Assembly (NCBI RefSeq): GCF_001677475.2
Contig: NZ_CP015229.1
DNA from: Escherichia coli
Lineage (GTDB): Bacteria > Pseudomonadota > Gammaproteobacteria > Enterobacterales > Enterobacteriaceae
Length of the DNA: 64,000 nucleotides
Reading direction: 5' to 3' (one strand)
The stretch's first letter is position 1; every line of letters begins with the position of its first letter. The position numbers and the translations under genes were made by a program. Below are positions 20,355-56,584 of this stretch, piece after piece. The notes below the pieces were generated by a model. That model was not told where the DNA came from. It made no database searches and saw only the letters and a program-made list of their open reading frames with translations.

Positions 20355-20381
20355 GATTACCAGTTGAAATCGTAAAGCGTT

Positions 20382-20403
20382 GCCGGATGACGCGTCATCC
20401 GGC
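20382..20403. terminator. perfect 22-bp palindrome (gccggatgacg/cgtcatccggc), likely bidirectional terminator
   Basis: Exact inverted repeat between the native osmC stop and the convergent dehydrogenase gene stop (20410). Confidence 0.5.
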
Positions 20404-20409
20404 GAACAC

Positions 20410-21180: not shown

Positions 21181-21191
21181 GATGATTTTCC

Positions 21192-22583: not shown

Positions 22584-22628
22584 CGGGACTCCTCAATATC
22601 GTTGTTATAGTGGGTACAGCGAGAGAAG

Positions 22629-24746: not shown

Positions 24747-24755
24747 GGTGATTCC

Positions 24756-25412: not shown

Positions 25413-25414
25413 GG

Positions 25415-26122
25415 TCAGGCTCCTTTGCGGCTAAGGGTGCGTTGTTCAATGCGTTTTTCAAATTGCCCCTGAATGACGCGATTAACAAAAATCCCCGGGG
25501 TATGGATAGCGGCAGGATCAAGTTCACCAGGTGGCACTATTTCTTCCACTTCCACCACGGTGATTTTTCCGGCAGCCGCCATCAGTGGGTTGAAGTTTTG
25601 CGCGGTATGACGATAAATCACGTTGCCGTACCAGTCGGCTTTCCAGCCTTTGACCAGGGCAAAATCACCGGTGATAGCCTGTTCCATGATGTACGGGCGA
25701 CCGTTGAATTCGCGGACTTCTTTCCCTTCGGCAACGGGAGTACCGTAACCGGTGGCAGTAAAGAACGCCGGGATACCCGCGCCGCCTGCGCGCAGTTGTT
25801 CTGCCAGGGTTCCTTGTGGTGTGAGAATCGCCTCCAGTTCGCCGTTAAGCACCTGTTTTTCAAACAAAGCATTCTCGCCAACATAAGAAGCGACGACTTT
25901 ACGGATCTGTCGGCTTTCCAGTAGTACATCCAGTCCAAAACCATCTACGCCACAGTTATTGGAAACCACCGTTAATCCGGTTACTCCACGGTGGCGAACT
26001 TCAGCAATCAGATTCTCCGGGATGCCGCACAGGCCAAAACCTCCTGCCAGAATCGTCATCTCATTGGTAAGTCCTTCAAGCGCCTCGTGATACGTAGCGA
26101 CCCGTTTATCCAACCCAGCCAT
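25415..26122 (-). CDS. 3-oxoacid CoA-transferase subunit A (ScoA/AtoD/DhcA-like)
   Basis: 235 aa; MAGLDKRV... and the [10 protein letters not shown] motif typical of alpha subunits; 2-bp spacing to subunit B. Confidence 0.85.
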
Positions 26123-26263
26123 ACAGTTGCCCTCCAGTTGTCCTTTTCAACATCATTAAGGGCAAAAAATGATTTGTTAATTTTAAATTTGTGACTCATT
26201 CATTTGTATTATTTATCAATACAATGTTAATTAAATGTATTCAGTAGGTTAACGGGGTGCCAG

Positions 26264-27154
26264 ATGAAAATGAGCATCAAACAGTTACGCGCGTTTTTAG
26301 CGGTAGCTCACACTCTGAACTTTGCCCATGCCAGTGAACGGCTGAATATGTCGCAGCCTGCGCTAAGTCTTGCCATTAAAGGACTGGAAGATGCCTTAGG
26401 GGGCGCTTTACTGCTGCGTACTACGCGAAAAGTGACATTAACCCAGGAGGGGGAAACGCTATTGTCGATGGCACGGCCTTTGCTGGCTGACTGGGATAAC
26501 ACTGAGGAGGCCATGCGTCAGCGATTCACGCTCAGGCGGGGCAAAGTCTCGGTGGCAGCGATGCCGTCATTTGCAGCCAACGTTCTGCCTCCGGTGCTGA
26601 AAACCTTCCGCGATTGTTATTCAGGGATTAATGTCACCGTGCACGATGTGGTGAATGAGCAGGTGATCGAAATGGTGAGCGAAGGGCGTGTGGAGATGGG
26701 TATTGCCTTTGAACCTGACTATTGCGGCCATGTGCATTTTACCCCACTGGGCGTGGATCGGTTTGTCGCTATTGTTCCAGCCGATTCACGACTGGCAAAT
26801 CGGCAACGCGTGAGTTGGCGGGATTTGCTGACGCTCGATTTTATCACCCTCCAGCGACCGTCAGCCGTCAGGTTGATGCTGGAGGAGCAGTTGGCACAAA
26901 GTGGAACGCAACTGGAAGTGTCGCTGGAAAGCCATCAACTGGTTACGGTTGGGCGGCTGGTGGCAAACGGTTTGGGAGGAAGCGCTGTGCCTGCGCTGTG
27001 CCGCAGGCAGATGAGCGAACTGGGCGCAGTGTGTCTGGAACTGGATAATCCAGTGATTGAGCGACGAGTAGGCGTACTGCGTTCGTCACACCATAAGCTT
27101 TCTACTGCGGCGCAGGCGTTGATGGAAACGTTAAAAAAAACCTATGACGCATAA
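26264..27154 (+). CDS. LysR-family transcriptional regulator, divergent from the CoA-transferase operon
   Basis: 296 aa; N-terminal HTH (IKQLRAFLAVAHTLNFAHASERLNMSQPALSLAIKGLEDALG) plus a LysR substrate-binding domain; the start may be the ATG at 26270. Confidence 0.85.
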   Translation: MKMSIKQLRAFLAVAHTLNFAHASERLNMSQPALSLAIKGLEDALGGALLLRTTRKVTLTQEGETLLSMARPLLADWDNTEEAMRQRFTLRRGKVSVAAMPSFAANVLPPVLKTFRDCYSGINVTVHDVVNEQVIEMVSEGRVEMGIAFEPDYCGHVHFTPLGVDRFVAIVPADSRLANRQRVSWRDLLTLDFITLQRPSAVRLMLEEQLAQSGTQLEVSLESHQLVTVGRLVANGLGGSAVPALCRRQMSELGAVCLELDNPVIERRVGVLRSSHHKLSTAAQALMETLKKTYDA

Positions 27155-27190
27155 CGTTTCCGCAGACATGCAATAGCCGGATGCCGCGTC

Positions 27191-35836: not shown

Positions 35837-37219
35837 CTAAAGACTGGCTTTCCAGAGTTCAACACGGTTTCTACCTCGTCTTTTGGCGATATACAGAGCT
35901 TCATCGGCTATTTGAATGAGGCGCTCATAGTCAGGATGACCATTAAACATGGCGGCACCGATGGAAAGTGAGAGGGCAATATCCTCGCCGTTTGCGGCTT
36001 TCAGTTTGGTTTTCTCCACCCGACTGCGAATACGTTCTGCGGTACGTAACGTTTCGTTTTCCGAAGCTTCAGTCAAAACAATGATAAATTCATCGCCCCC
36101 GTAGCGGAAAACATAATCACTACTGCGGACGTTGTCATAAAAGGCCTGAGAGACTTTACGCAGAATTTCATCGCCAGTGTTATGGCCCCACGTATCGTTG
36201 ATCTCTTTGAATTTATCAACGTCAATAATCAGCACTGACAGCGGTGTACCGGTCCGGTTGGCATGGGCAATTTCGCGTTTGAAAATAGTCGGCAGGAAAC
36301 GGCGGTTAAGTAATTTCGTCAGTACATCCATACCGACTTCGTGGCGCGATACTTCTTCAAACAATTCACGCAGCAAGGTAATAATTTGCGATACGGTATT
36401 TCTTATCTGTAATAAAAATTTCACCCGCAGACTTCTGTTATTCAAATTCCTGGTGTTACGCATGGTTTGATTGAAAATACCGTCGAAATCCTGAATCAGA
36501 CGGGAGATATGGCCCACTTCGGCAATGCCGCTAAAATAATGTCGACCTTTATGGTTAAACCACAGGCCAAAATCAGCCTGGCTTAAAGGCAAACTACTGC
36601 CTAAATCAGAATCCAGCAGGACTTTATAGATAATATCTATTTCCCATGAAAGTAATGAGGCTATTTGCCGTTCTTTTTCTTCTTCGGCATTTTCCAGTAA
36701 CGAGAAGATACGATAGTTTTCATCTTCTTTTGAGGCACTACTGTCACTAAAGGTAAACGCGCGGGTCATCACTTCCATAGCGATATCAATACTGTTAATA
36801 GAGAAATGGTAGACCTGAAGTTTTTCTGCGGCGGAATAATCCGAAGAGAAGATGACCGGATAGAGGATTTTTTTCAGCACCCGAAACCCCATCTCGACAA
36901 TTTCTACCGGAATTCCTATGCGGGCATGCACTTCCGCGACGGTATGCTGGATTTGTATTAGCCTTTCGACATCGTCAACCTGGGCAGAAAGCACGTTAAT
37001 AATCCAGCGTTCCATCGCACTTTTCAACTGCCGCTCAACTTGTTCATTACTCAAGAATTCTTCGGCATGCGGGTCGATACGGACAATTCGGTAAAACTCA
37101 ATACTCAGATAATGGGCATGCGCAACGGCAATTTCCGCGGCTTTAGCACGAATGAGCGGATCTGCTTGTTCGACAAGCCCGGTCCACTCATCTTTCATTC
37201 TTTTAAAATACATCTCCAT
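35837..37219 (-). CDS. dosC: oxygen-sensing diguanylate cyclase (globin-coupled sensor)
   Basis: 460 aa; GGDEF active site (RYGGDEF) in the C-terminal half; 24 bp upstream of dosP. Confidence 0.9.
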   Translation of the reverse strand: MEMYFKRMKDEWTGLVEQADPLIRAKAAEIAVAHAHYLSIEFYRIVRIDPHAEEFLSNEQVERQLKSAMERWIINVLSAQVDDVERLIQIQHTVAEVHARIGIPVEIVEMGFRVLKKILYPVIFSSDYSAAEKLQVYHFSINSIDIAMEVMTRAFTFSDSSASKEDENYRIFSLLENAEEEKERQIASLLSWEIDIIYKVLLDSDLGSSLPLSQADFGLWFNHKGRHYFSGIAEVGHISRLIQDFDGIFNQTMRNTRNLNNRSLRVKFLLQIRNTVSQIITLLRELFEEVSRHEVGMDVLTKLLNRRFLPTIFKREIAHANRTGTPLSVLIIDVDKFKEINDTWGHNTGDEILRKVSQAFYDNVRSSDYVFRYGGDEFIIVLTEASENETLRTAERIRSRVEKTKLKAANGEDIALSLSIGAAMFNGHPDYERLIQIADEALYIAKRRGRNRVELWKASL

Positions 37220-37595
37220 AATTCACACCCTTATAAGGCTGGGAAAGCAGACGGAATCAAAACGAAACGCAACGTGCGAGATCGACTAACTGCACCATAT
37301 TCTCCTGAAATATGAAGATATACTGAAAACAAATAAGCGACTTAGGACAGTTTCAATCTACGCTACTGTTCTTCAGAAGAGTATAGCCCATCGTAATTAT
37401 TTTTCGGTGACAGCGAATATCGTATGTTTTTTCATATTCATACATTTTTATTAGGGGATTTATGGCTATTTAACTAAGTGTGGTTAATTGCGTGGTGAAT
37501 TTGACTTAAGTAAGCATGATTACTAGTGGGATATTTCAAGAGGGTAGCAAGCCGGTGGGTAAACCACCGGCTTGTCACAAAGTATGAATGGGAGT

Positions 37596-38915
37596 TTAAC
37601 TGCCCCAACGACTTTGCAGATAGCTGACCGCTTGTTGAGTCTGCGGTTTATTCAGATAGTCCTCACGGAACAAGATGGTGCCGCTAATTTCTGGTACCGC
37701 ATCGTTAAGATCGAGCTGCTTTTTCAGTTCCGGTACGCCGCCGTTAATCATCCAGTCTGGCTCTATCTTTGAAGGTTCACCCACTTTATAGAAGGCGATA
37801 CCGATATACAGGCGGGTCCTGGTCGGTTTAACGACATCCGCCCACCATTTTGCCAACACGTCATAACGCGCGGCACTCCGTGAGAACGGCCAGTAAATTT
37901 GGGGAGCAATGTAATCCAGCAATCCTTGTTCCACCCATCGACGGGTGTCAGCGTAGGATTCGTCATAGGCTGCCGCGCCTCGGGTATCGGAACCGAGCGG
38001 ATCGTGTGATCGGTTACGCCACACGCCTGCCGGGCTAACACCAAATTCGACTCCCGGCTTAATGCTTTTAATGGTGTGCGATACCTTTGCAATTAACTGC
38101 TGAGTATTGTTGCGCCGCCAGTCTGCTTTTGACGCAAATGCGCCTCCGTATTTACGGTACGTTTCGTTATCATTTAGCCGTGAACCCGGTGATTCAGTAT
38201 AGAAATAGTCGTCAAACTGCACGCCATCTACCGGATAGCGGGAAACCACTTCCGCGACTATTGATGTGATCCAGTCCTGAACCTCAGGGATGCCCGGGTC
38301 GAGGACAAAGCGATCGCCGGACGTTCTGATCCAGTCGCGGTGTTGCACATAGACGCTCGCCGGTTGTTGAGACAGAGTGCTATTCAGTTCCCTGATAGTA
38401 CCGGGCTTCGTATTAACCGATACGCGATAGGGGTTAAACCAGGCGTGTACTTTCATCCCACGCTTGTGAGCTTCGTCGAGAATAAATTGCAGCGGATCGT
38501 AACCTGGATTTTCACCAATCTTTCCGGTCATAAGATCGGACCACGGCAAAATTTTCGATGGCCACAGGGCGGTACCGTCCGGCTTGACCTGGAAAAAGAC
38601 CGTGTTTATGCCGAGACGTTGCAGATGATCCAGTTTGTCGATCATCGCCTGTTGTTGTACACGTGCCCGGCTGGTGGGGTTACTAATGTTAACCGAGGAA
38701 ACCGGTGGCCAGTCGAGGCGAGACACCGTGGCCAGCCAGATGCCACGCATCGGTTGTGACGATTGTTGCGTCGTGGCTGGTGGCTTCGAACCTGTTGGTG
38801 GTGTCACCATTGACTCTGGGGGCGTGCTTTTGCAACTACACAGTAAAAGTGCCAGTGCAACCAGTACCGCGGGTCTTCTAATCGCTAATTTCTCGTTTCG
38901 GGAGCAGATATCCAT
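37596..38915 (-). CDS. yddW: outer-membrane-anchored lipoprotein glycoside hydrolase (GH10-like)
   Basis: 439 aa; lipoprotein signal with LLLCSC lipobox region. Confidence 0.85.
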   Translation of the reverse strand: MDICSRNEKLAIRRPAVLVALALLLCSCKSTPPESMVTPPTGSKPPATTQQSSQPMRGIWLATVSRLDWPPVSSVNISNPTSRARVQQQAMIDKLDHLQRLGINTVFFQVKPDGTALWPSKILPWSDLMTGKIGENPGYDPLQFILDEAHKRGMKVHAWFNPYRVSVNTKPGTIRELNSTLSQQPASVYVQHRDWIRTSGDRFVLDPGIPEVQDWITSIVAEVVSRYPVDGVQFDDYFYTESPGSRLNDNETYRKYGGAFASKADWRRNNTQQLIAKVSHTIKSIKPGVEFGVSPAGVWRNRSHDPLGSDTRGAAAYDESYADTRRWVEQGLLDYIAPQIYWPFSRSAARYDVLAKWWADVVKPTRTRLYIGIAFYKVGEPSKIEPDWMINGGVPELKKQLDLNDAVPEISGTILFREDYLNKPQTQQAVSYLQSRWGS

Positions 38916-39045
38916 ATATGCTGGTTTCCGGTAAACAGATGTGCGCTCATTCTCGTACTTATCCCGGTTAAGTCAATACGACAGCGAGCACGAAAAAGGG
39001 AGCGATTAATTATCGCTCCCTTGTCTTATAACCATTCAGACATGG

Positions 39046-40581
39046 TTAGTGTTTCTTGTCATTCATCACAATATAGTGTGGTGAACGTGCACGCGGGTGC
39101 AGGAAGAAGTGACCTTTTGGTGCGTTCTGACTGTTGATTGGCTCCAGAGTGACGCCGGTATTCGCTTTGCCTTTACGATCATGAACAGCATAGAGAATAA
39201 AGGGCAGGGCAAGTACCACCAGGAAACTAACGACCAGTAATTCAACATACATATCGGTAGAGTCACCCTGGATGTTATCCGGCGGCAGGAAGGAAACAAT
39301 AAACGCCATAATTGAAGTCAGCAGACCGACAATAGCCACGACCAGTTTCACCCCTTTACCACCAGGGATATTAAATGTGCGTTTTAAGTCAGGATGTTTA
39401 AGAACCAACACAATGTAGCCAATAAACAGCATGAAATAAGCACACAGATAAATCACCACCGTCAGCGCCAGTGCGATCAGGAAGGACATGTTGTTACCGC
39501 CACCGGTATTGGTGAGGATGATCAACGCGATAGAAGTAATCACCAGCTGCGAAATGACCAGCGTTACCGGTACGCCATTTTTGTTCATTTTAGCGAATGC
39601 CGCTGGCAGCAGGTTTTTCTGCGCTGTGACATACATCCCGCGAGAAGGACCAACAATCCAGGAGGCGATTTCCGCCAAAACACCCAGCAACAACAGTGCG
39701 GAGATCACGCGAACCGTCCACTCAATTTCCGGTGCCACATGGGACATCAGAACGGTAAAGGTTTGCATTACCCCTGCGGAGAGGTTGATTTCATTACCCG
39801 GAATGACCATCGCAATAGACAAACCGCCAACAGAGCTTAAGCAGATTGCCGCCACCATCAGCAGTAACATAGCCAGTGGATAGTCGCGCCCGGGGTTGCT
39901 CATTTCATTGACGTGAGTTGCGGAAGCTTCTACGCCCATATAACTCAAAATGAAGGCAACAAATACAACCAGGGTGCCCACTTTAGAGAAGTCAGGGAAG
40001 AAGGTCTTCGAATCCATTTCGATAGCAACGGGGGCACCGGAGTGCAGATAAATAGCCGCTAATGCGATCAAAATAAATGCAGGTAACAGGATACCGGCGA
40101 AGAAGCCAACTTTAGCAATTCGTGCCGTGTATTTCGTGCCACCAAACTGCGTTAATGCCAGCGCCCAAAGAATGATGAGTGCTGCAATAGTTTTGGTAAT
40201 GGGGTCTTCATTCAGCGCTGGCCATTTCAGGATGTAGGAGAGTGCCCCTAACACGAAATAGAGCATCGGAATAAAACCAATGGCGATTTGCAGATAGCCA
40301 AATGAGATCGCTGCAAATCCCCATCTCGGCCCCAGAGTATTTGATACCCAGGCGAAGACACCACCTTCTTCCCAGCCGTCGACGGTGGCCATTTCCGCAG
40401 CACAAAGTCCCACGGGAATAAACCATAAAATCCCGCCTAATAGCAGGAAGAAGACTAATGAAAAGCCCGATGTTGCGAAGGTAGGGTATTCATAAACAGC
40501 CATTACCATCGATGCCGTTATGGCAAAAAAGCCGAGTAATGTGAGCTGCTTAGCTTTACCTGTCTGTACTGATGTAGCCAT
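39046..40581 (-). CDS. gadC: glutamate:GABA antiporter
   Basis: 511 aa APC-family transporter, [33 protein letters not shown]... Confidence 0.92.
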
Positions 40582-40736
40582 ATTATCCCCCTAAAACGGT
40601 ATTCCTGTCGGAACCGCACCTGTTTTGTTCTGAAGCGTATTCAGAACAATATTTTCCGTTGCTAATGCCAGTGAACAGACTTTGGAGATTGTCCCGAAAC
40701 GGGTTCGTTTCGGGACACCGTTACCGTTAAACGTTA

Positions 40737-42137
40737 TCAGGTATGTTTAAAGCTGTTCTGCTGGGCAATACCCTGCAGTTTCGGGTGATCGCTGAGATAT
40801 TTCAGGGAGGCTTTGTAGTCTTCCAGCAACAGTTCAGCAAAGTCCATTTCGAAGCCACGACGACACATAATGCGCATCACCACGATGTCAGTGGCTTCAC
40901 CGCCGAGAGTGAAGGCCGGAACCTGCCAGCCGCGCAGACGCAGACGTTCAGAGAGGTCGTAGAGGGTGTATCCCGGATCTTCACCATCTTTCAGTTTGAA
41001 GCAGACCGCCGGGATGCCTTCGTCCGGACGACCGGTACAGATGAACTCATACGGCCCCAGTTTGGCGATCTCATCCGCCAGATAGGTAGCGACCTGATAA
41101 GAGGCGTTCTGTACTTTGGTATAGCCTTCACGACCGAGGCGCAGGAATTCATAGTACTGTGCAATTACCTGACCCGCCGGGCGGGAGAAGTTGATGGCGA
41201 AAGTACCAATCTGACCACCGAGGTAGTCAACGTTGAACACCAGTTCCTGCGGCAGCGCTTCTTCGTCACGCCAGATAACCCAGCCGCAGCCCAGCGGAGC
41301 CAGACCGAATTTATGGCCTGAAGCACTGATCGATTTCACCCGCGGCAGGCGGAAGTCCCAGACGATATCCGGGGCAACGAACGGCGCCAGGAAGCCACCG
41401 CTGGCAGCGTCGATGTGCATGTCGATGTCGATACCGGTGTCGGCCTGGAATTTATCCAGCGCATCGTGCAGCGGTTGCGGGAACTCATAGTTACCGGTGT
41501 AGGTCACGCCGAAAGTCGGCACCACGCCGATGGTGTTTTCGTCGCAGGCTTCAATCATGCGTTTCGGGTCCATAAACAACTGACCGGGGCGCATAGGGAT
41601 CTCACGCAGCTCCACATCCCAGTAGCGGGCGAATTTATGCCAGCAGATTTGTACCGGACCGCACACCAGGTTTGGTTTATCCGTTGGTTTGCCTGCAGCT
41701 TCCATACGCTTGCGCCAACGCCATTTCATCGCCATCCCGCCGAGCATACAGGCCTCGGAAGAACCAATGGTGTTGGTGCCAACGGCCTGACCATTTTTCG
41801 GCGCAGGCGCATGCCACAGATCGGCAACCATATTTACGCAACGCAGGTCAATGGCTGCGGATTGCGGATATTCTTCTTTGTCGATCCAGTTTTTGTTAAT
41901 GGATAAATCCATCAATTTGTGGACATTTTCGTCGTCCCAGGTCTGGCAGAAAGTGGCCAGGTTCTGACGAGCGTTGCCATCAAGATATAATTCGTCATTG
42001 ATAATCTGGAATGCGACATCGTCGCGCATTTCGTGCAGCGGAAAACGTTTTGATTCTGCGATAGTGGAAATAGACTTCGCACCAAAACGTGAATCGAGTA
42101 GTTCCGACCTTAAATCCGTTACTTGCTTCTTATCCAT
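40737..42137 (-). CDS. gadB: glutamate decarboxylase beta
   Basis: ORF trimmed to ATG 42137 ([24 protein letters not shown]...), 466 aa; AGGAG RBS; PLP-lysine motif [10 protein letters not shown]. Confidence 0.92.
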
Positions 42138-42216
42138 TTTAAACTCCTTAAAATGATTGGATCGCATTAAAAAAGTAGGATTTATCGATAAAGTAAGCAA
42201 GTGCAAAGGACTCGTG

Positions 42217-42236
42217 TTTAAATAACAAAATCCTAA
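42217..42236 (-). promoter_or_regulatory. GAD box (GadE/RcsB site), exact 20-mer TTAGGATTTTGTTATTTAAA
   Basis: The reverse complement of 42217-42236 is exactly the GAD box sequence, 80-100 bp upstream of the gadB ATG. Confidence 0.65.
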
Positions 42237-42454
42237 TGTTATTTATCGTGAGATATTACACGAATAATATTTTTTCATTGAAAAACAATATAATATGGAA
42301 TTCCTGGGTGGTGGTAAGGTGTTTTATGCTGTTATTTTTATGCGCATTATGTGCCTCCTGAATTATCACGTAAAAATCAGACCTTAAAATATCACTATTA
42401 GTACTTGGTTATTATTTTGAACGCATTTATAAAATTATTACATAAAAATAGCGA

Positions 42455-42493
42455 ATATTGATAAAATCCCCGCCAACGATGTGTTGACGGGGC
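42455..42493 (-). terminator. terminator-like hairpin immediately after the pqqL stop
   Basis: ccccg...cgggg imperfect stem (42468-42493), followed on the minus strand by AUUUUAUCAAUAUU. Confidence 0.4.
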
Positions 42494-42498
42494 TGTTA

Positions 42499-45294
42499 TT
42501 ATTTTGGCAATAATATTCCAGTATAAGTATTTACCGGATGAGAAAGATATTGTTTAACGGCAGTGTTAACATTCTCTACCGTCATTTGTTTCAACAATTG
42601 CTCCTGCTCAGTCCATGCTGCAGGATCGTCATATTGAATAAGACTATTTACAATAGTGTTCGCTAATTGTTGAACGCTACGCTGTTGGATATCGAGGCTG
42701 CGCTGAACGTTTTGCTGGTATTCATTCAGTTCTTGCTCACTGATCCCTTTAGCCAGACGCTTAACCATCACTTCATTCGCTAACGTTAACAGTTCATCAT
42801 GTCGTTCTGGTTGACAAGTAAAAGCCAGCAAATGACTGATATCTTTGGCCTCAGGATCAACCGAGAGGCGAGAAGAAACGCTGTATGCTCCAGATGCCTG
42901 TTCACGAATATTAACGCGTAGATCTTTTGCCAGTGCGACGTTAAAAGCATCGAGCGCCATACGCGTCTCCAGATTTACAGGTGTCCGGGAATCATAACGT
43001 TTCCACTGTGAAACCTGTGCCACAGGTTCATTTTGTTCTTTTACAGTAACCGATGCGTTGTCCGTCGCGCGAGTTAATGGTTTACCTGCGGCTAATGGCG
43101 AATCAGAGTGTTTGATTGATCCTAAGTAACGCGTAATTAACGCCACGAGTTTGTCTTCTGCGACATTACCGACAATGACAAACGTGATATCCGCTGGAGA
43201 TGAAAACAACTGGCGATCGGCAGCCAGCGCATCTGCGGCAGTAAACTGTGCAATCTGATTTTCTTGCAGTAATTTCGTGCGGTCATCAGCATAGCGCGTC
43301 TCATACATCTGCTGGGCGAATTTCTCCGCTGGACGCTGGTCGAGCGTTTTCAACGCCTGAATTTGAGCATTTTGTAGCGATGCCCAAATATTATCGTTAA
43401 TCGTGCTGTGGGTGATTCGCTGGTTAATCAACTGGAAACCAGGTTCAGGGTTATTAGTCCGCGTGCTAACAGAGAGCAATGTATTCATGCCACTGACTTT
43501 ACTGCTCATGGTTACCGAGTTTTCCGCACTCCAGCGTTTCAGGCTGGAAGAGGAGAGTTCACCAACGCCGCTTCCGCTTACTGCTTTATTTGCCAGCGCG
43601 ATAAGTGATTTTTGCTGCGCAGGGAAACTTAAATCGCCTTTATTAGATACGGCAGTAATTTGTAGCTTTTGCTCTTCACCCGCGGATTTTGCCAGAATAA
43701 CCCTGGCACCATTGGAAAGTGTTAATGATGTCAGATTCTCAGCCAGCGTTTCTTTGCTGCTAATTTCCGCCAGTGGGTCAGCGTCTACTGTTAACGATAA
43801 ATTTCTGCCTGGGAAGATGTAAGCCGCCAGCTTTTTGTTGGCGTACTCTTTTTCCAGCGCCAGGATAGCCGCAGGAGACAATGCTTTTTTGGCAGCAACC
43901 TCATTGTTTACCATTTGCTCCCAAAATGCATCCTGGTTCTTTCTTAACTGCTGCCATTTTTCCGCCAGACTTTGCACGGTAATTTGCTGCCACAGACGTT
44001 TCGAAAGTTGATATGTCTCTTCCGGCGACAAGAACGGCGTATTATTTAATGAGCTGGATGCCAGGCGACTGGTCAGCATACGTAAATCACGTTCAGCTTG
44101 CTGATCAACCGCATTTTTCAGCCAGGTGAGGCGGGTAGATTTGACATCATCGAGTTCTTCAGCAGAAAAACCATGCTGATCAATGGTTGCCAACTCTGCC
44201 ATTAATGCATTCGCAGCATCCTGCATATTATCGTCTCGTGCATTTACACGGAAAAACAGCGACTGATAATCGGGTGCAATTTTAACGCTGCGCGCAGTGC
44301 CGCCAGAAATAGTCTTCAACTCGCCCGACTGTATGCGTTCCTGCAGACGTTGATTGAACAGCTGAACTAACATGCTCCATTCCGCTTGTTCGATAAAGCT
44401 TTGCTCATCGTTCACTTGTACCATTGGCAGGCGATAATAGAGTGCGATGCCGTTCACCCGGTTTTCTTTATCATTAATGATATTAAAGCGCAGGTGATTT
44501 TCGGCTTTTGTCGGCCAGACGCGATTTTCAGCTGCTTTGTTAGCCGGAAGCTTACTTAAATTATCCTTTATCAGCGCCAGCGCTTCTTTACTGTCGATAT
44601 CGCCGACCACGATAAAGGTCATATTATTTGGTTGATACCAGCGTTGATAAAATTGGCGCAATTGTGCCGGTGTGACCGTGGCGACAGTATCCATCAGGCC
44701 GATAGGTTCACGGTCTAAATTACGGGTATTAGCCAGCAGGAAAGGGCGGCGCGCCTGAGAGGTGCGCCATTTCGCATCCTGATGGGCACGCCATTCCTCA
44801 GTAATTACGCCACGTTCAGCGTCAACTTCGAGTTTTTCAAAGGTTGCGGCATTACTCCATTCACTGAAGATTGCCATCACTTGTTGCAGATTTTGTTTCT
44901 GCGTAGTCGGCAAACTCACCTGATACACCGTTTCGTCATAGCTGGTATAGGCATTAACATCGCGACCAAAACGCAGGCCCATTGACTCAAATGTTTCGAT
45001 GACTTTATTACCCGGCCATGTTTTTGTGCCGTTAAACATCATATGTTCTACAAAATGAGCCACGCCGCGCTCATTGTCTTCTTCCTGCAATGAACCGGTA
45101 TGAATTTGCAGCCATAAATTTATCTGATCCTTTGGATGAGCATGCGGATAAATCATATATCGCAAGCCATTGTCCAGTTGCCCGGTAATTAACTTTTCAT
45201 CCTGCGGTAAGGCGGCGGCAATCAGCCGCCCGGGGAGCAACAGAGTTGCCACTAACGTCAGTAAGAAACAGAGGTTTCTCATAATTATCTCCAT
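42499..45294 (-). CDS. pqqL: periplasmic M16-family zinc metalloprotease
   Basis: 931 aa; HxxEH inverted zinc motif (HFVEHMMFNGT); signal peptide; alternative start at the internal MRNLCFLL. Confidence 0.88.
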   Translation of the reverse strand: MEIIMRNLCFLLTLVATLLLPGRLIAAALPQDEKLITGQLDNGLRYMIYPHAHPKDQINLWLQIHTGSLQEEDNERGVAHFVEHMMFNGTKTWPGNKVIETFESMGLRFGRDVNAYTSYDETVYQVSLPTTQKQNLQQVMAIFSEWSNAATFEKLEVDAERGVITEEWRAHQDAKWRTSQARRPFLLANTRNLDREPIGLMDTVATVTPAQLRQFYQRWYQPNNMTFIVVGDIDSKEALALIKDNLSKLPANKAAENRVWPTKAENHLRFNIINDKENRVNGIALYYRLPMVQVNDEQSFIEQAEWSMLVQLFNQRLQERIQSGELKTISGGTARSVKIAPDYQSLFFRVNARDDNMQDAANALMAELATIDQHGFSAEELDDVKSTRLTWLKNAVDQQAERDLRMLTSRLASSSLNNTPFLSPEETYQLSKRLWQQITVQSLAEKWQQLRKNQDAFWEQMVNNEVAAKKALSPAAILALEKEYANKKLAAYIFPGRNLSLTVDADPLAEISSKETLAENLTSLTLSNGARVILAKSAGEEQKLQITAVSNKGDLSFPAQQKSLIALANKAVSGSGVGELSSSSLKRWSAENSVTMSSKVSGMNTLLSVSTRTNNPEPGFQLINQRITHSTINDNIWASLQNAQIQALKTLDQRPAEKFAQQMYETRYADDRTKLLQENQIAQFTAADALAADRQLFSSPADITFVIVGNVAEDKLVALITRYLGSIKHSDSPLAAGKPLTRATDNASVTVKEQNEPVAQVSQWKRYDSRTPVNLETRMALDAFNVALAKDLRVNIREQASGAYSVSSRLSVDPEAKDISHLLAFTCQPERHDELLTLANEVMVKRLAKGISEQELNEYQQNVQRSLDIQQRSVQQLANTIVNSLIQYDDPAAWTEQEQLLKQMTVENVNTAVKQYLSHPVNTYTGILLPK

Positions 45295-45338
45295 GCGAAA
45301 ACCGGGCGAATTTACCCGGTTAAGTAAAATCCGAACTA

Positions 45339-47711
45339 TTAAAATTTCATGCTGACATCAAGCCAGAAAGTACGGCCACTGGCGTAGGTCGCCACACCGG
45401 TATTCGTTGTATCAACAGCGGTTTTGCTATCCAGTACATTGAGAATATCGGCACTGATCGTCAGGTTTTGTTGTTTCAGAAATTGTGGCGTCCAGGACAA
45501 GCGGGTGTCCCAGGTCAGGCTGCTATCCAGTTTTTCGTCAACATACTGCTTGTAATCTGAATATTCGCTGTTGTATTGCGCATTCGTCTTACCCAGGATA
45601 ATGCGAGCTTTACGCGCTTCTTGCCAGGCCAGCGTATTCGCCCACACCAACCCGCTCGGTTGATGCGTGAAATCCATGTTTAAGGAGATCTTTAATGGGT
45701 TATTAAAATCCGCCACTGGAACGCTATCGTAAGAAACCAGATTACCGTTATAAACCACCTGGTTATCACCGGTATTGCTCTCCTCATAACCATTGTTTAA
45801 CGACAAGTTGCCCTTGCTCTTGATATAGCTAAAGACAATTTGCGGGTTAATATCTACCTGGCTGATATGCAGGGGTTCGGCCAGTTCAAGACTGAGGTTA
45901 AACGAATGCGTTTTGGTTTTGCCGTCGTTGTTATATTCAGTAATGGTGGTTTTAGTCGCGCTGTCGGTACGACTGCTTTTGCTGATTTGATCATGCGCTT
46001 CACGGTAAACATAGTTTGCGCGCGCAATAACGTTCTTACCGAATTTTTGCTGCAATCCCATTGCCAGTTCATCGTTATAAGGCGTTTTCAAATCCTGATA
46101 ACGCGTCAGGGTTTTATTGCCTGATACAGATTCCGTCCAGCTATTGCGGATATCACGTAATCCCATATCAAGAATATTCCCGCCATAGTAACGGTTATAA
46201 CCTGCGGTAATCATTGAGGTTTGATCAGCAAAAATATCCCATTCCGTCATAAAGCGTGGGGAAATATTGTGGTTTGACAGATAGTTGTCATAGTCATACC
46301 GCACGCCGGGCATTAACGACACATTACGCCAGCTAATGCGATCCGCCATATACAGCGTGTAGTTGTCAATTCCCAGGCTGCCTTTACCTTTATGGTAAAT
46401 GGTATGGTTAGTTTTCTTTCCGGCAGCATTAATCACATAGGATTCAGACTGGTTATGGCGTTCGGTCCATGCATCGGAATAGATGTATTCCGCGCCGAAG
46501 TAGGGTTGATGAGAAACATTACCCACGGTGAATTTTTGCCAGTCCAGGCGTGTTTTGAAGGTGTAATTATCTACAGCCTGGGAAATGTGTCCTAATCCGC
46601 CACGGGTGCAACGCCCTGTAATATCACCATATGTACATGAAAGTTCGGTGTACCAGATGTCATGATCGTGACGGGTATAATCACTAATATGATCCCAACC
46701 AACGGTGGTACGTAGTTTGGCCCATGCGAGATGCGTATCCATATCCCATGCCAGACCGTAGGATTTATTACCCATTTCGCGATCAGACTGCGGGAAGGTG
46801 CTGGTATTATAATCACGGCTGGAGCCGGTATATTTTAAGGTTAAATCGTGGGTAAAGCGGTCGCTGGCAAACCAGGTAAATTTGCTCACTGCGGTATCGA
46901 TAACGTTTTTGTACTGTGCCCGACCGGCGACAATGCCGTCATTCGAAACATAATCCGCGCGGGTGATATCAGACTGGCGGCGCGATAAACCGGCGGTAAC
47001 GCCGAAGTTATGAGCGAGTTCCTGATTAAATGACAAAGTATAAAAGTTCTTTTTAAAATCTGGAGAGTAATAAGTACTTCCTGAAGAACCTTGATTAAAT
47101 GCGCTCTTGTTATTCTCATCGATATGCGATGTTAACCAGTCCGAACGCGTAGTGCGGTAACCCAGTTTCACGCTGCTATCATCAGCGTTGAAGCGTTTGA
47201 TCTTTGCATCAATTACCCCGCCATTGAAGCGACCAAATTCAACCGGCACAAAACTGTCATAAAGCGTCACATTGTCCAGTAAGCTGACATCAAGATAATA
47301 CCCCTGTGACATCCCGCTAATATTGGTTGCACTACTGGCATCGGACTCATTCGCTGGGTTCAGGTTATTAGTTGCACTAATACCGTCAATCAAATAGGCA
47401 TTCTGGTAGGGCGACGCACCGTGAATAGAGATTTTCTCCGGGCGAATATCTCCCTGGTTCAACGAGGTACTTTGCGTTGAATCCATGCGTACCGCAGGGT
47501 TGGTTCTCAGCAGATCGCTGATATTGCCATTCCCGGTCGGTAAACGCTCGATGCTTTCACTGGTGTAATGCGTGTTGCCGTTTACGGGTACAGGGACAGG
47601 AGCATAGACCGTCATCTCTTCAAAAAAATGCATGTACATGTTTTTGTCATCGACGGCCTGCGCCACATCAGCGCCACATAAAATGACGCCAGGAATAAGA
47701 ACTCGCTTCAT
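45339..47711 (-). CDS. yddB: TonB-dependent outer-membrane receptor
   Basis: 790 aa; signal peptide, plug-domain and beta-barrel features, C-terminal ...WLDVSMKF. Confidence 0.88.
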   Translation of the reverse strand: MKRVLIPGVILCGADVAQAVDDKNMYMHFFEEMTVYAPVPVPVNGNTHYTSESIERLPTGNGNISDLLRTNPAVRMDSTQSTSLNQGDIRPEKISIHGASPYQNAYLIDGISATNNLNPANESDASSATNISGMSQGYYLDVSLLDNVTLYDSFVPVEFGRFNGGVIDAKIKRFNADDSSVKLGYRTTRSDWLTSHIDENNKSAFNQGSSGSTYYSPDFKKNFYTLSFNQELAHNFGVTAGLSRRQSDITRADYVSNDGIVAGRAQYKNVIDTAVSKFTWFASDRFTHDLTLKYTGSSRDYNTSTFPQSDREMGNKSYGLAWDMDTHLAWAKLRTTVGWDHISDYTRHDHDIWYTELSCTYGDITGRCTRGGLGHISQAVDNYTFKTRLDWQKFTVGNVSHQPYFGAEYIYSDAWTERHNQSESYVINAAGKKTNHTIYHKGKGSLGIDNYTLYMADRISWRNVSLMPGVRYDYDNYLSNHNISPRFMTEWDIFADQTSMITAGYNRYYGGNILDMGLRDIRNSWTESVSGNKTLTRYQDLKTPYNDELAMGLQQKFGKNVIARANYVYREAHDQISKSSRTDSATKTTITEYNNDGKTKTHSFNLSLELAEPLHISQVDINPQIVFSYIKSKGNLSLNNGYEESNTGDNQVVYNGNLVSYDSVPVADFNNPLKISLNMDFTHQPSGLVWANTLAWQEARKARIILGKTNAQYNSEYSDYKQYVDEKLDSSLTWDTRLSWTPQFLKQQNLTISADILNVLDSKTAVDTTNTGVATYASGRTFWLDVSMKF

Positions 47712-47748
47712 TTATTTATATCTCCGTACAGCAGGGCTTTTATTGTTT

Positions 47749-49434
47749 TTATAAAACCGCGCTAATGTCACAAATATCATCAGCCAGGTTCCAGACACCG
47801 GGTTGATGTGTAACCATAATGACGCCGCTTGTGGGTAGTTTTTCACGCACTAAACGCAGTAAGCGGATAGCCTCTTGTTCCTCAAGATGAGAGGTAGTTT
47901 CGTCAAGAAATATCCATTTCGGACGTCGTAAAATTAATCGTGCCAGGGCGATACGTTGTTTTTCGCCGCTGGAAAGAATATCTCCCCAGCGATCGTGGTC
48001 ATGAATACGCGCAGCCAATTTCCCCAGACCAACCTGATGCAGTACTTCGCTCAACGATTTATCGTCTACGGGCAGGGGAAGTGCTTTACAAATAATCTCT
48101 TTCAGTAAGCCGGTTTTGATTAACGGTGTTTGTGACACATACCAACTGTCAGCAGGAGAAGAAATATAACCTTTAAACCACGGCCAGCAGTGAGATAATG
48201 TTTTAAGCAGTGTGGTTTTTCCCGCACCAGAGTAACCTTTCAGTAATAGCCATTTGCCTGGCGGAACATGAAAGTTCAGGTTCTCTAATATGATCTTATT
48301 ATCAGGGGTACGAATACTCGCGTCAGCCACTTGTACCGCATGTTGGCAATTTTTAGGCTTATTCGTAGGGCGCTGTTCGGTGAGTTGATGGAACTCATAC
48401 AAGCGATCGATAACCGCAGCCAGTTCAGCAATTTCATCATATTTATAAATAAACCAGCTTAAATTGTTCGATACCAGCATAAATGCCTGGCGCGATTTCA
48501 TAAGTCCGCCCAGATTGATCTGTCCGCTAATAAACTGCGGCAATAACAGAAAGTAGGGAAGAACGCTAAGCGAACGCGAATAAATATTCTGCCAGTAATC
48601 AAGCCACCGCTGACGATTCATTAAACGATGCCAGTTCTCTTTAATGGTATGAAAATTGTCGCTCAACTCCTGGCGTTGTAGAGACTCAGCATTGCTTAGC
48701 GCAATCAGTTCTGCCTGTTTATTATGCTGCACAAGATTAGTTCGAAATGTCGCTTCGCTACGTTGTTTTTCCACATTAAGCGGACGAATACGTTTACCCA
48801 CCTTATGGGTAAATAAAGTTCCACCGATCACAATGAGCACGACGGTATAGACCATATACCCCTGGATATTCCATTCTGTTCCACCAACAGTGAATGAGAG
48901 CGTACCCGCACTTTGCCAAAGAATAACGGTAAAGGTGATCAGCATGCTAAGCGACTGGATGAAGCCAAATGAAAGGCTGAGCGTTTTACTGATCAGTAAG
49001 AGAATGTCCTCAGCGATACGTTGGTCAGGGTTATCTGTATTTTTATGCTCGCCGTAGATTTGCGTGAAGTAGTAGTTTTTATCTGCAAACCAGCGATTAA
49101 GATAGTAATCTGTTAACCATTCGCGCCAGCGAATAGTCAGTAGTTTAATTAACCATGTTTTGTTTACGGATATTAATACAAAGATCCCCAGCAGGGCAGG
49201 GAACCAAAGAACAAGCTGCCAAAGCTTATCGGTTTCTTTCTGGCTTAGCGCATTGAAAAAATCATTATTCCAGTCGTTTAACCAGACCTGAATTTTAACA
49301 ACGCCAAGGATCATGGCGAGGATAATAATGATTAACAGCACTGAAGTTTTATTATTCTTACGCAGCCAAAAGGGCTTCAGCAGACAGAGATACTTTGCTA
49401 TCAACATACAAAACGTAATGGGAATGGTTATCAT
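47749..49434 (-). CDS. yddA: ABC transporter, fused permease/ATPase
   Basis: 561 aa; N-terminal TM domain, then Walker A GYSGAGKTT, ABC signature LSSGEKQR and Walker B. Confidence 0.88.
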   Translation of the reverse strand: MITIPITFCMLIAKYLCLLKPFWLRKNNKTSVLLIIIILAMILGVVKIQVWLNDWNNDFFNALSQKETDKLWQLVLWFPALLGIFVLISVNKTWLIKLLTIRWREWLTDYYLNRWFADKNYYFTQIYGEHKNTDNPDQRIAEDILLLISKTLSLSFGFIQSLSMLITFTVILWQSAGTLSFTVGGTEWNIQGYMVYTVVLIVIGGTLFTHKVGKRIRPLNVEKQRSEATFRTNLVQHNKQAELIALSNAESLQRQELSDNFHTIKENWHRLMNRQRWLDYWQNIYSRSLSVLPYFLLLPQFISGQINLGGLMKSRQAFMLVSNNLSWFIYKYDEIAELAAVIDRLYEFHQLTEQRPTNKPKNCQHAVQVADASIRTPDNKIILENLNFHVPPGKWLLLKGYSGAGKTTLLKTLSHCWPWFKGYISSPADSWYVSQTPLIKTGLLKEIICKALPLPVDDKSLSEVLHQVGLGKLAARIHDHDRWGDILSSGEKQRIALARLILRRPKWIFLDETTSHLEEQEAIRLLRLVREKLPTSGVIMVTHQPGVWNLADDICDISAVL

Positions 49435-49639
49435 TAGCGAAAATTGATTGTGCCATCCAATGATTGTCTATGGCAATGATTTACTGATGAAATTTATTTA
49501 AGTGTCATTTAACAATATGAAATATAAAGGAATATTTCATTTTCAGTGGTTATGGTTATGCTATTGATAATCAAGGATATTGCTAATGCTAATGCCCTGA
49601 CGCATACCACGTAAGCCAGGATTTTCGCAAGGGAAGATG

Positions 49640-49677
49640 ATGATGACGAAACACCCGACAGGAATATGTGTCGGGTG
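49640..49677 (-). terminator. terminator-like hairpin after ydeM
   Basis: Perfect 9-bp stem cacccgaca / tgtcgggtg with an 8-nt loop, then on the minus strand UUUCGUCAUCAUC. Confidence 0.45.
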
Positions 49678-49730
49678 CATTGTTAAGGTCATAAGAAGGA
49701 GGCTAAGACTGGAGCTAAGAGGGAGCGTTA

Positions 49731-50888
49731 TTAATTATTCTCCATTTGTCTTGCAACATCCATGATGTGGTAAAGCGGTACTCTGTTCTTAGCTAACTCC
49801 ACCATGGCGTTCAAATAAGGCACCATGGTTGAAAAAAGGATTTTATAACCTTCACAAAAATAGGAAACAGTCTCATTGTTTACTTTAGTAATACGATGCT
49901 TAGGACAACCGCCATTGCAGATAGGTTTATATGCACATTGCTGACATTTCGCTGAAATCCGTTTTTTTTGCGCTGTCAGTTGAACACTGTTCATCGTTTT
50001 GAGTTCAGATTTATTAATGTTTCCAATTTTGTACTGTGGATAGACAAAATGGTCGCATTCGTAAATGTCTCCATTACTTTCAACAACCAGATTATCCTTG
50101 CAGGACTCCTGGAAAATACAACTGGTATGCCCATTCCCCAAAAAACGGCTGACAAAGCTTTCAAACTGACGGATGAAAATTTCACCCACATCGTTTTTAA
50201 CCCATTGCATAAAAATGGTCGACATAAACTTGCCATAAGCCGTAGGAGGCACAGAAAAATCAATGATACGGAATGTGTTCTCACTATGACCACTGAAATC
50301 AATATTCGGCGTCCCGGTTTCGAGCAATTCGATAAATTGCATATGTTTACTGCCGATAGATTTTAAAAAATGATAAACCTCAAGAGGGTAATGGACATTA
50401 ACGTTATTAATGACGGTTAACGTATTAAACTCTACTTGATATGATTTCAGACGCTCGATGGCTGCTATCACTTTTGTAAAAGTACCGTTACCTGAATTAC
50501 TGCGTCTGTAACGGTCATGTAGCTCCTGGGGTCCATCGATCGAGATACCAACCAGAAACTCATGTTCTTTGAGAAAGGCACACCATTCATTATTCAATAA
50601 AATGCCATTCGTTTGTAATGCATTAAAAATACGTTTTTGGCCTGCATAGCGTTGTTGATAGTGAATAACTTTACGGAAAAAATCCAGGCCAGCCAGAGTG
50701 GGTTCACCGCCTTGCCAGGTAAAATAGACCTGATTGCCAGACGCTGCGATATATTGTTTGATGAACTCTTTCAGAGTGCTGTCATCCATCCATTTTTCAT
50801 GAGTAAACTGCGACTCTTTTTCAAGGTAAAAACAGTAATCACATTTGAGATTACATTGAAAACTGGAGGGCTTGGCTGTAACGTGCAT
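49731..50888 (-). CDS. ydeM: radical-SAM anaerobic sulfatase-maturating enzyme homolog
   Basis: ORF trimmed to ATG 50888 ([24 protein letters not shown]...), 385 aa; CxxxCxxC radical SAM motif and C-terminal Cys clusters ([18 protein letters not shown]). Confidence 0.85.
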
Positions 50889-52622: not shown

Positions 52623-53023
52623 AAATGTTCCTCTTCTTATTGTACTTAATTCCAAAGTAATTTTACGAAGAGAAATAAGTGGATGTAAGTGAAGTTAGTC
52701 ACATAAAGAGATAGCAGATTTAGCTAAAAAAAGGGAAATAACAGTCCATAAAGCGTTGACATTACTTTTTGTTCTACTAAGTAATTTCTCGACGATAAAC
52801 AACTAATCTATTGATATTTAATAAATTATTGTATTTTACTGACAAAATGCCGAATTAAGATCATAAATAATCATGCAACAGGTTATGCAAATGCATAAAT
52901 ATGTGATGAATGTCACTTATTTATTTCAATAAATATATCGCCTAAAAACAACGCGGGGCAGGAAATGGCTGCCCCATTTAATTCTTACGTAGCGTGTGTG
53001 GTTGACTACTCGTTAGCAAATAA

Positions 53024-53785
53024 TCAAATAGCTAAAGCATTCATCGTGTTGCCCTTATTCATACCCGTGTGCCTTTGACAACGGTACTCCTTAGAAACTC
53101 TCTTTGGACTGTTGCCAAAATGTTTGCGGAACGCATAAATAAAATAAGATGTACTGGCATAACCACATTGTTCGGCAATTTTATTGACTGAACCTTCTAC
53201 GCGTATCAAATTTTTTGCGTGCTGCATTCTGGCATCTAAAAGAATCTGTGAGAATGTCGTTTGCTCTTGCTTAAGTTTTTTCTTCAACAGGCTTTCACTG
53301 ATGTACAGGCAGTCACAAATATCTTTCAGCTTCCATGGGTGCGCCAGCTTCATGTTGACAATATTTCTCACTTTCCCGGAAACGGATAGCACACCGTTAG
53401 TTAATAGTGTAATGAAACCTTTGCATGCGGCAAAAATAGACAGGCAAGAAAAAAGCAAAAGTTCTGAAAAATTATGATGATTGCGTTCTTCCGAGTTGAG
53501 ATAAGCAATCATTTCATTAAGCAATCCAGTCGGTACATTTGAAGCACGTAAAAACTTCGCAGGAACAGGCACCGTCACTGTCTGGATGTTAGTGCATTGT
53601 AGATATTTTTTAATGGTATTTTCATTAAATCCGATTTCTTTAAAATGCCGCTCATAAGGTTCAAAATGCGTACGAACAGCGTTATCTACCATCAAGATCT
53701 CGCCGTCAGAGAAGGCGTAATCTTTATCTAAAATGTTAGCGTTGAAGGCATGATGAATAAATATAACAGAACAAACGAGCGACAT
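53024..53785 (-). CDS. ydeO: AraC-family acid-resistance regulator
   Basis: 253 aa; C-terminal AraC HTH; matches YdeO as recalled. Confidence 0.88.
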   Translation of the reverse strand: MSLVCSVIFIHHAFNANILDKDYAFSDGEILMVDNAVRTHFEPYERHFKEIGFNENTIKKYLQCTNIQTVTVPVPAKFLRASNVPTGLLNEMIAYLNSEERNHHNFSELLLFSCLSIFAACKGFITLLTNGVLSVSGKVRNIVNMKLAHPWKLKDICDCLYISESLLKKKLKQEQTTFSQILLDARMQHAKNLIRVEGSVNKIAEQCGYASTSYFIYAFRKHFGNSPKRVSKEYRCQRHTGMNKGNTMNALAI

Positions 53786-53859: not shown

Positions 53860-54057
53860 TCAGTCTTGCAAACTATTGATAATGAAATGTGTAATATCTC
53901 TTGCAATGCGACCCATTTCTGAAATACCCAGCTGATCAATTGCCGAAAAAATGGCTATCAACGTAAGTGTCAGTAATAAGACAACCACAATTACAGACAT
54001 GATTTCTTTATAGTTGTCTCTTTGCGTGATTTTGTTTTTCACTGTGGTCGCATGCAT
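53860..54057 (-). CDS. safA: two-component connector membrane protein SafA
   Basis: 65 aa MHATTVKNKITQRDNYKEIMSVIVVVLLLTLTLIAIFSAIDQ...; single TM helix; directly upstream of ydeO. Confidence 0.85.
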   Translation of the reverse strand: MHATTVKNKITQRDNYKEIMSVIVVVLLLTLTLIAIFSAIDQLGISEMGRIARDITHFIINSLQD

Positions 54058-54304: not shown

Positions 54305-56584
54305 TTAATTTGATGGTTCTAATTCAACCGGAATACTTTTATAGCCAGGAATGCCACTTAATGGATCGTGGTTATCAAGTGTTAGCATGTGATTCGATTC
54401 TGGAAAATAGGTCACCAGTGAGCGGTCAGCCATAGGGTAAATGACCACTTTTAATCTATCCATGCGGCGTGAGCTGCGCTTACCGTCTGGCGTAAGCGCA
54501 ATAAGATTAACTCTTTCGCCGTTTTTTACACGGCAAATTTTAGCTTGTTTAGCACTCATAAAGACCACATCTCGTTGACCGAATACCCCTCGATAGCGAT
54601 CATCCATACCATAAATCGTCGTGTTGTACTGATCGTGGCTGCGTACTGTCGCCATGACCAGCTTACTATTAAACGCTGAAGAGGGATCTTCTAACAGCCC
54701 TTTGCTGGTAATGAAATTAGCCTTACCTGACGGCGTCATCCAGCGCCTTTCAGCAGCTGCATTTATCAGGTGAAAACCACCGGGATGACGGATGCGCTGG
54801 TTATAGTCGGCGAACTCTGGCAGCACAGCTTCAATGTCATTGCGAATGCGATCATAATCTTCCACCAGATACTCCCAGGCTACCACGCTCTGAGGTAGTG
54901 CTGCCTGCGCGATTCCCGCGACCACTGCACACTCTGATTTCAGCATTACACCGGCGGGTTTTAACACGCCACGCGAGGCATGAATCATCGACATTGAATC
55001 CTCAACGGTTACCGCCTGCGCACCGCTTTTTTGCATATCAATCTCGCTACGTCCCAGAACCGGCAGAATATAGCTATGCCGTGCGGTCAGCAGATGAGAG
55101 CGGTTAAGCTTAGTGGCTACGTGTACCGTCAGATCTAATTGCGTTAACGGTACAGCGCTCGCTTCCCGATCTGGCATTGCAAGTGCAAAGTTGCCCCCCA
55201 TGCAGATCAATGCTCGAGCTTGCCCCGTACATATAGCTTGCATGCTGGCAATTGCAGCATGTCCAGGTGCATGAGGTGGGGTGAAGCCATAGCGCTCACC
55301 AAGGCGAGCCAGAAACTCTGCAGACGGTTTCTCGGTGATACCGACGGTTCGGTCGCCCTGTACATTAGAGTGACCTCGTAGTGGGCAGATACCCGCACCA
55401 GGCTTGCCAATGTTACCTTTCATCAACAGCAGATTGACCAGTTGCTGTACATTCTGGGTACCATGTTCGTGCTGAGTGATCCCCATTCCGTAACAGATAA
55501 TGGTGCGTTCGGCAGCGACATATGCATCAGCCAGTTCGGCGATTTGAGTCTGACTTAATCCAGAAATACGTTCGATATCTTTCCACTCGGAATTGAGAAC
55601 GTCACGGCGTAGCTCGTCAAAGCCGACGGTATGCGTTTGAATAAATTCGTCATCCAGCAATGAGGGCCGACCTGCGGCGCTTGCAGCATCATCGCGCTCA
55701 ATTAACAGGCGCATCATCCCCTTGAGCAACGCCATATCGCCACCAATGCGCACGTTATAGTAGGCACTAGCCAACTGAGTCTCAGAGTTCGTCAGCATTT
55801 CAAACGGGTTTTGCGGTGCGGTAAATCGCTCCAGGCCACGTTCCTGTAGAGGATTGATGGCGATCATTTTCGCTCCCCGTTTCACTAAAGCGCGCAACGA
55901 AGTCAACATGCGAGGGTGGTTTGTACCAGGGTTATGCCCAATGCAAATGACTAAATCGCACTTCTCAAAGTCTTCCAGCAACACGGTCCCTTTACCCACA
56001 CCGATACTCGCTGCCAAACCCACACTGGTCGGTTCATGGCACATGTTGGAGCAGTCGGGAAAGTTATTGCTCCCGTATTCACGGGCAAAAAGCTGATAAA
56101 GAAAGGCAGCTTCATTGGAAGTGCGCCCCGAAGTATAGAATTCAACCTGATTGGGATCACTATAGCTTTGAAGGCGAGCGCCAATTTCGTCGAAAGCTTG
56201 TTGCCAGCTTAATGGCTTGTAACAGTCGCTGACGGCATCATATTTCAAAGGCTGAGTGAGACGCCCGGCAGCCTCAAGCTCGTGGTCTCCCCAGGTAAGT
56301 AATGATTGAACCGTATTCTCAGCAAAGAAAGAGGCGTTTACCTGCTTATCCGTGACTTCCCAGGCGATTGCTTTTGCGCCGTTTTCACAAATGTCGAATG
56401 ACGCACTGTGCTTAGGATCTGGCCATGCACAACCCGGACAGTCAAAGCCCTCTGGCTTATTCATGTCAAACATGGCAATAACATCCTGGCGTATATCCAT
56501 CTGCTTACGTACTGCATTCGCTACGGATTTAACAGCACCCCAACCACCGGCAGCTCCCTGGTAGGATTCAATTTTTTTCTTCAT
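54305..56584 (-). CDS. ydeP: molybdopterin oxidoreductase (formate dehydrogenase-like) required for acid resistance
   Basis: 759 aa; N-terminal Cys cluster ([11 protein letters not shown]...) and molybdopterin-binding domains. Confidence 0.88.

Follow-up and report, generated by a model that had tools for sequence, protein, structure and literature searches.

What does a 20-bp element on the minus strand at 42217..42236, upstream of a glutamate decarboxylase gene, do in the Escherichia coli genome that carries it? The gadB and gadC genes form the core of glutamate-dependent acid resistance. GadE, an activator of the LuxR family, and RcsB, a response regulator, are the factors that the sequence of this element brings to mind. 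However a short A+T-rich sequence next to a duplicated gene can be read in more than one way: as a working operator, as a passive trace of the duplication, as a site for other regulators of the same promoter, or as an accident of composition. Here we analyze the element within a stretch of 64 kb, which we refer to as the window, and weigh these readings against the anatomy of the promoter, published K-12 data and the conservation of the site.

We conclude, with high confidence, that the site is the GAD box of the gadBC promoter and the operator of the GadE-RcsB heterodimer. The genome carries an intact gadBC operon together with the canonical GadE-RcsB operator, an RcsB box and a core promoter. 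The GAD box at gadB is already known and is textbook-level material for E. coli acid resistance, and the significance of the result beyond annotation is slight.

In the mechanism that we propose, the GadE-RcsB heterodimer would bind the box about 52-71 bp upstream of the transcription start and 16 bp from the -35 element. Once bound, it would activate a weak, partly sigma-S-dependent promoter of the form TTGCTT-17-TACTTT, possibly by recruiting RNA polymerase from a class-I-like position. This promoter would drive gadB and gadC and, through them, glutamate-dependent acid resistance, while GadX/GadW sites further upstream would modulate gadBC expression. The same regulation would be expected to operate in this strain as in K-12.

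The GAD box and the gadBC promoter

The window extends from fdnG to a ydeQ-fimA-like cluster, and the genes around the box stand in the K-12 order pqqL-gadB-gadC, and, as in K-12, 361 nt separate pqqL from gadB. The gadB gene (40737..42137, minus strand, ATG at 42137) is intact and encodes glutamate decarboxylase B of 466 aa, which differs from K-12 GadB by one substitution, A351T. Its identity as gadB follows from its N-terminus, which is that of K-12 gadB (K-12 gadA begins MDQKLLTDFR), and the annotation of homologous E. coli records also gives it this label. The gadC gene (39046..40581, minus strand), also intact, encodes the glutamate:GABA antiporter of 511 aa, a protein identical to K-12 GadC, and is the second gene of the operon under the gadB promoter. 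Upstream of gadB, pqqL occupies 42499..45294 on the minus strand. A terminator-like hairpin 3′ of pqqL, consisting of CCCCGTCAACACATCGTTGGCGGGG and a T-rich tail (42468..42492, minus strand) and the same in K-12, bounds the gadB regulatory region on its upstream side.

The trans-acting factors lie outside the window, gadE and rcsB mapping elsewhere in E. coli. Provided that both genes are present, glutamate-dependent acid resistance in this genome is probably regulated as in K-12, judging from the sequence of the locus. Three further genes of the acid response are found in the window as intact open reading frames on the minus strand: ydeO (253 aa, 53024-53785), safA (65 aa, 53860-54057) and ydeP (759 aa, 54305-56584). 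They belong to the EvgA-YdeO cascade, an inducer of gadE.

Read directly on the minus strand from 42236 to 42217, the element is TTAGGATTTTGTTATTTAAA, which has 20/20 identity to the GAD box and an A+T content of 80%. It is the single match in the 64-kb window when both strands are searched with up to three mismatches. At this tolerance, dinucleotide-preserving shuffles of the window give an expectation of 0.01 matches per shuffled window. Being unique against so low an expectation, the box is therefore not a chance match. It lies on the same strand as the intact gadB and gadC genes, which follow downstream, and its 3′ end is 80 nt from the gadB ATG, as in K-12. The initial annotation had described the reverse complement of 42217-42236 as an exact GAD box at the expected distance from gadB, and both parts of this description are borne out. 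The alignment with the K-12 gadA and gadB promoters that it had proposed as a check reveals a box identical to both copies.

The gadB promoter has the layout box-16-TTGCTT-17-TACTTT, with all elements on the minus strand. A 16-nt spacer, CACGAGTCCTTTGCAC (42201..42216), fixed in length and variable in sequence, separates the box from the -35 element TTGCTT (42195..42200), which matches TTGACA at 3/6 positions and is the same in K-12. Between the -35 and the -10 elements lies a 17-nt spacer, ACTTTATCGATAAATCC (42178..42194), which includes CGATAAATCC. The -10 element TACTTT (42172..42177) has 3/6 positions of the sigma-70 consensus and is preceded at 42178 by a C, which we take to be the -13 C typical of sigma-S promoters. 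The gadB leader of 34 nt between the -10 element and the ATG (42138..42171) contains the Shine-Dalgarno sequence AAGGAG (42144..42149), the same in K-12 gadA and gadB. Carried over from K-12 via sequence identity, the transcription start would fall at 42164..42165.

An RcsB box, CGATAAATCCTA, abuts or overlaps the -10 element; its extent of 42176..42187 is approximate, the exact limits being given in PMC2887963 only as a figure. The alignment shows that CGATAAATCC-TACTTT equals K-12 gadB, even at the base where C replaces the G of gadA: the RcsB-box region reads GGATAAATCC in gadA as against CGATAAATCC in gadB and the window.

A simple sigma-70 scan did not call the TTGCTT-17-TACTTT promoter, because each hexamer has only 3/6 of the consensus. 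Two hexamers that each match at 3/6 positions fit an activator-dependent promoter. The three matches that the scan did return were rejected as the gadB promoter, their number being that expected by chance and their positions lying further upstream.

Published K-12 data and related promoters

In K-12, the GAD box is a 20-bp element whose midpoint precedes the gadA and gadBC starts by 63 bp (PMC2887963), and at gadA it stands 16 bp upstream of the -35 element (PMC2887963, Castanie-Cornet et al. 2010). GadE by itself does not bind the box and RcsB alone does not protect it; the two proteins bind it jointly, as a heterodimer, the apparent constant being ~10 nM, and on gadA they together leave a footprint from -50 to -76 (PMC2887963). 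A G-to-C change in the box (M1) abolishes both heterodimer binding and activation by GadE (PMC2887963). The footprint, EMSA and point mutants of that study concern the gadA promoter, not gadB, which is tied to the heterodimer by its identical sequence and to GadE by ChIP-exo. The G altered in M1, whose exact position within the box is given by PMC2887963 in figure form, is present in the window, all 20 positions being those of the K-12 gadA box. The RcsB box directly upstream of the -10 element mediates repression by RcsB at high levels, and it is kept in gadB except at its left end, where a C stands instead of a G (PMC2887963).

The same 20-mer is quoted as the GadE site in a genome-wide study (PMC4918353, Seo et al. 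2015). At gadBC, the ChIP-exo peak of GadE spans 1570144-1570175 on NC_000913.2, with its centre at -62.5 and an activating effect (PMC4918353 Suppl. Table 1); its signal-to-noise ratio is modest, at 2.78 (PMC4918353). Deletion of gadE changes gadB by a log2 value of -6.44, an RNA loss of ~85-fold, and the activation attributed to GadE is >50-fold versus <2-fold for GadX (PMC4918353). RpoS association is listed for gadBC (PMC4918353 Suppl. Table 1). The mode of activation, recruitment of RNA polymerase or displacement of a repressor, is left open in that study (PMC4918353).

To compare these positions with the box, we took the offset between NC_000913.2 and NC_000913.3 as 1976, an assumed value. 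The K-12 GAD box at 1572125-1572144 of NC_000913.3, where the gadB ATG is at 1572045, then converts to 1570149-1570168, inside the GadE ChIP-exo peak. Transferred to the window, the peak covers ~42212-42243 and includes the GAD box. The peak distances given for GadE and GadX all imply a start at 1570097 of NC_000913.2 (PMC4918353 Suppl. Tables 1 and 3), which after conversion is 27-28 nt upstream of the gadB ATG. Measured from this start as transferred out of K-12 (window 42163-42165), the centre of the GAD box is 61.5-63 nt away, and the box, the predicted operator of the GadE-RcsB heterodimer, spans about -71..-52. The mapped K-12 start thus keeps the motif within the promoter, contrary to the outcome that the initial annotation had named as one that would refute it. 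The initial annotation had also held that the regulatory architecture is conserved, a view supported for the cis elements of gadB by 100% K-12 identity from the box to the ATG.

The K-12 gadBC promoter and the window share the 20-mer, its spacing to the -35 element, the -10 element and the ATG, and all 100 nt from box to ATG. The intergenic region differs by 8 SNPs, all within the 262 nt that precede the box, at 42461, 42408, 42354, 42349, 42304, 42298, 42291 and 42260. The closest of these is 24 nt from the box, and the 8 SNPs fall in the GadX/GadW zone. The K-12 chromosome around gadB is only ~98.3-98.6% identical to the window.

With the K-12 gadA promoter, the window shares the 20-mer, TTGCTT, TACTTT and the spacer lengths of 16 and 17, as well as an RcsB box that differs at its first base only. 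The 16-nt spacer and all sequence upstream of the box are unrelated, and the downstream partner gene is gadX at K-12 gadA and gadC here. In the alignment, the 5′ end of the GAD box is exactly the point from which the gadA and gadB loci are homologous; further upstream their sequences are unrelated.

The GAD box also differs from the RcsAB and RcsB boxes, in which the partner of RcsB is RcsA or a second RcsB rather than GadE; unlike in those boxes, the right half of the GAD box is not an RcsB half-site. The GadE sites at hdeA, hdeD, gadE and yhiM have a TTAGGA-type left half and an upstream activating position in common with the GAD box (PMC4918353). The GadE sites of the acid fitness island are degenerate (TTARGAWWWWAAATA), whereas gadA and gadB carry the 20-mer in full. 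A search of the window with TTARGAWWWWAAATA gave 8 matches versus 4.3 expected. The GAD box is not among these matches, since its 20 bases do not conform to the 15-mer. Separately, the ydeN-ydeO intergenic region contains TTAAGATCATAAATA (52855-52869, plus strand), which fits the degenerate GadE motif with 1 mismatch; this GadE-like match is probably not meaningful, the motif count not being above chance.

Further upstream, at about -200 from the inferred start, the upstream activator region contains a GadX/GadW-type motif, AGGTCTGATTTTTACGTGAT (42365..42384, minus strand). It departs from the published motif AKGKCTGWTWTTWWYMYVAK at a single base, and the window contains no other match, where chance would give 0.30. 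In K-12, GadX ChIP-exo peaks have their centres on either side of this motif, at -184 and -225. In addition, the SNP at 42260 (C in K-12, T in the window) creates a perfect inverted repeat, TCGTG-N8-CACGA (window 42246-42263), which is 9 nt upstream of the GAD box and imperfect in K-12 and other E. coli. The repeat sits in the zone of GadX/GadW and H-NS action. We consider it very unlikely that the 8 lineage-specific SNPs change how GadX/GadW or H-NS control gadBC, with the GadE-RcsB core left as it is.

Conservation of the site and alternative readings

Of 5,426 complete E. coli genomes, 5,404 contain a match to a 40-mer in which the box is extended by 10 nt on each side. We estimate from these sequences that at least about 95% of complete E. 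coli genomes carry the exact GAD box, because four exact 40-mer flank haplotypes (3650, 1035, 482 and 7 records) cover ~5,170 of 5,406 records, a sum in which double counting is negligible. Some 230 records remain outside the four haplotypes, which bounds variant boxes at ~5% or less. Among seven inspected promoters with a non-identical 40-mer, no variant box was seen, the differences lying in the flanks alone.

By scanning one genome per species, 298 billion bases in all, for exact matches to the 20-mer, we found 11 loci, 8 in Escherichia and 3 in unrelated metagenome-assembled genomes (MAGs). The Escherichia loci come from E. albertii, E. whittamii, Escherichia sp. E1V33 and two records labelled E. 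coli, and at each of the 8 a gad gene stands in the same register to the box. The unbiased measure of conservation is the E. coli haplotype counts and not this exact-match scan, which is blind to variant boxes.

Across 15 promoter copies, conservation changes sharply from one promoter segment to the next. None of the 40 columns upstream of the box is invariant (0/40), and the box is invariant at 20/20 columns, partly by construction among the non-coli loci, which were picked by the exact 20-mer. The 16-nt spacer retains 1/16 invariant columns and a length of 16 nt in 15/15 copies. Invariant columns number 4/6 in the -35 element (TTGCTT being invariant in 9/9 gadB promoters), 10/17 in the 17-nt spacer and 6/6 in the -10 element. 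Across Escherichia, the 20-mer, the -35 element, the RcsB box and the -10 element form separate islands of conservation, set in a 16-nt spacer and an upstream sequence that are free to vary. The aligned non-coli lineages show flanks that are heavily diverged around a box, spacer lengths and a core promoter that are not.

Two genomes that carry the name E. coli stand apart across gadB-pqqL: E69 (CP089930.1) is ~88% and SCPM-O-B-8794 ~93% identical to the window. Judged by these identities, both probably belong to other Escherichia species or cryptic clades. The E. coli species representative is absent from the matches of the exact-match species scan.

The three matches outside Escherichia are in one Lentisphaeria MAG and two Bacteroidales MAGs (L011 143-162, L012 6379-6398, L014 4178-4197). 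No glutamate decarboxylase gene was found near these 20-mers; their context is coding-like, that of L011 reading like a Sel1/TPR-type repeat. We rejected all three as GAD boxes, and chance matches are what a search of 298 billion bases can yield.

These distant matches are what could be cited for reading the box in the window as an A+T-rich 20-mer that arose by chance, since the same sequence occurs there without a nearby gad gene. Such a reading would have to contend with the 0.01 matches expected per window at up to three mismatches and with a position, an orientation and a register to gadB that are all those of K-12, and we discount it altogether. A subtler proposal is that the 20-mer is a passive by-product of gadA/gadB duplication and gene conversion, with no regulatory role in this genome, for example through loss or inactivity of gadE or rcsB. 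The start of the gadA/gadB homology at the 5′ end of the box, which puts the box at the edge of the duplicated segment, is consistent with this proposal, as is the location of gadE and rcsB outside the window. However the 16-nt spacer differs almost wholly between gadA and gadB while the box, the -35 element, the RcsB box and the -10 element are kept. A spacer that has diverged between retained elements therefore points to selection on discrete elements and not to a single uninterrupted conversion tract. Furthermore neither gadB nor gadC is disrupted, their products carrying 0-1 amino-acid changes, and ydeO, safA and ydeP of the gadE-inducing cascade are intact in the window, so that we regard a passive relic as extremely improbable.

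The site could also act mainly via GadX/GadW or as a nucleation site for H-NS, with GadE-RcsB in a secondary role. An A+T content of 80% would suit this reading, and the gadA and gadBC promoters are known targets of H-NS, GadX and GadW (PMC2887963, PMC4918353). The GadX/GadW motif, however, differs from the box, and its sole match is ~130 nt further upstream. Binding data from K-12 argue in the same direction: GadX ChIP-exo peaks at gadBC lie at -184, -225 and +66, plus one at 1570345-1570385, and none is on the box, which is where the GadE peak is found (PMC4918353). Together with the far stronger activation by GadE than by GadX cited above, this leaves a primary role for GadX/GadW or H-NS at the box with only a minute probability, and the operator of the GadE-RcsB heterodimer is the reading that we retain.

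The wider window

E. coli PSS-15 and the window are collinear between fdnG and the ydeQ fimbrial cluster, apart from an accessory island of ~9.2 kb. The collinearity is also briefly broken at 13130-13273, near the fdnI / yddM (higA-like) junction, where one collinear block ends at 13129 and the next starts at 13274. The window lacks the IS2 element that E. coli PSS-15 carries between ydeP and ydeQ. Among the 5,426 complete E. coli genomes, the best identity to window positions 36000-50000 is ~98.4% over 14 kb, and the other collinear blocks of the window reach best identities of 97.2-98.1%, versus 99.4% for the accessory island. Such values would fit a lineage that the complete genomes do not cover, whether a divergent E. 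coli, a cryptic clade or a Shigella-like one, or else a genome left out of that set.

The island occupies 17945-27190, between osmC and ddpF, and is missing from E. coli PSS-15. Its 99.4% match extends over 76% of a 10-kb query and occurs in a minority of E. coli genomes. The annotated genes comprise a GntP-family permease, an acetyl-CoA C-acetyltransferase, a 3-hydroxyacyl-CoA dehydrogenase, a 3-hydroxybutyrate dehydrogenase and a LysR regulator, and because of these genes we read 17945-27190 as probably a short-chain hydroxy-acid/ketone-body utilisation island.
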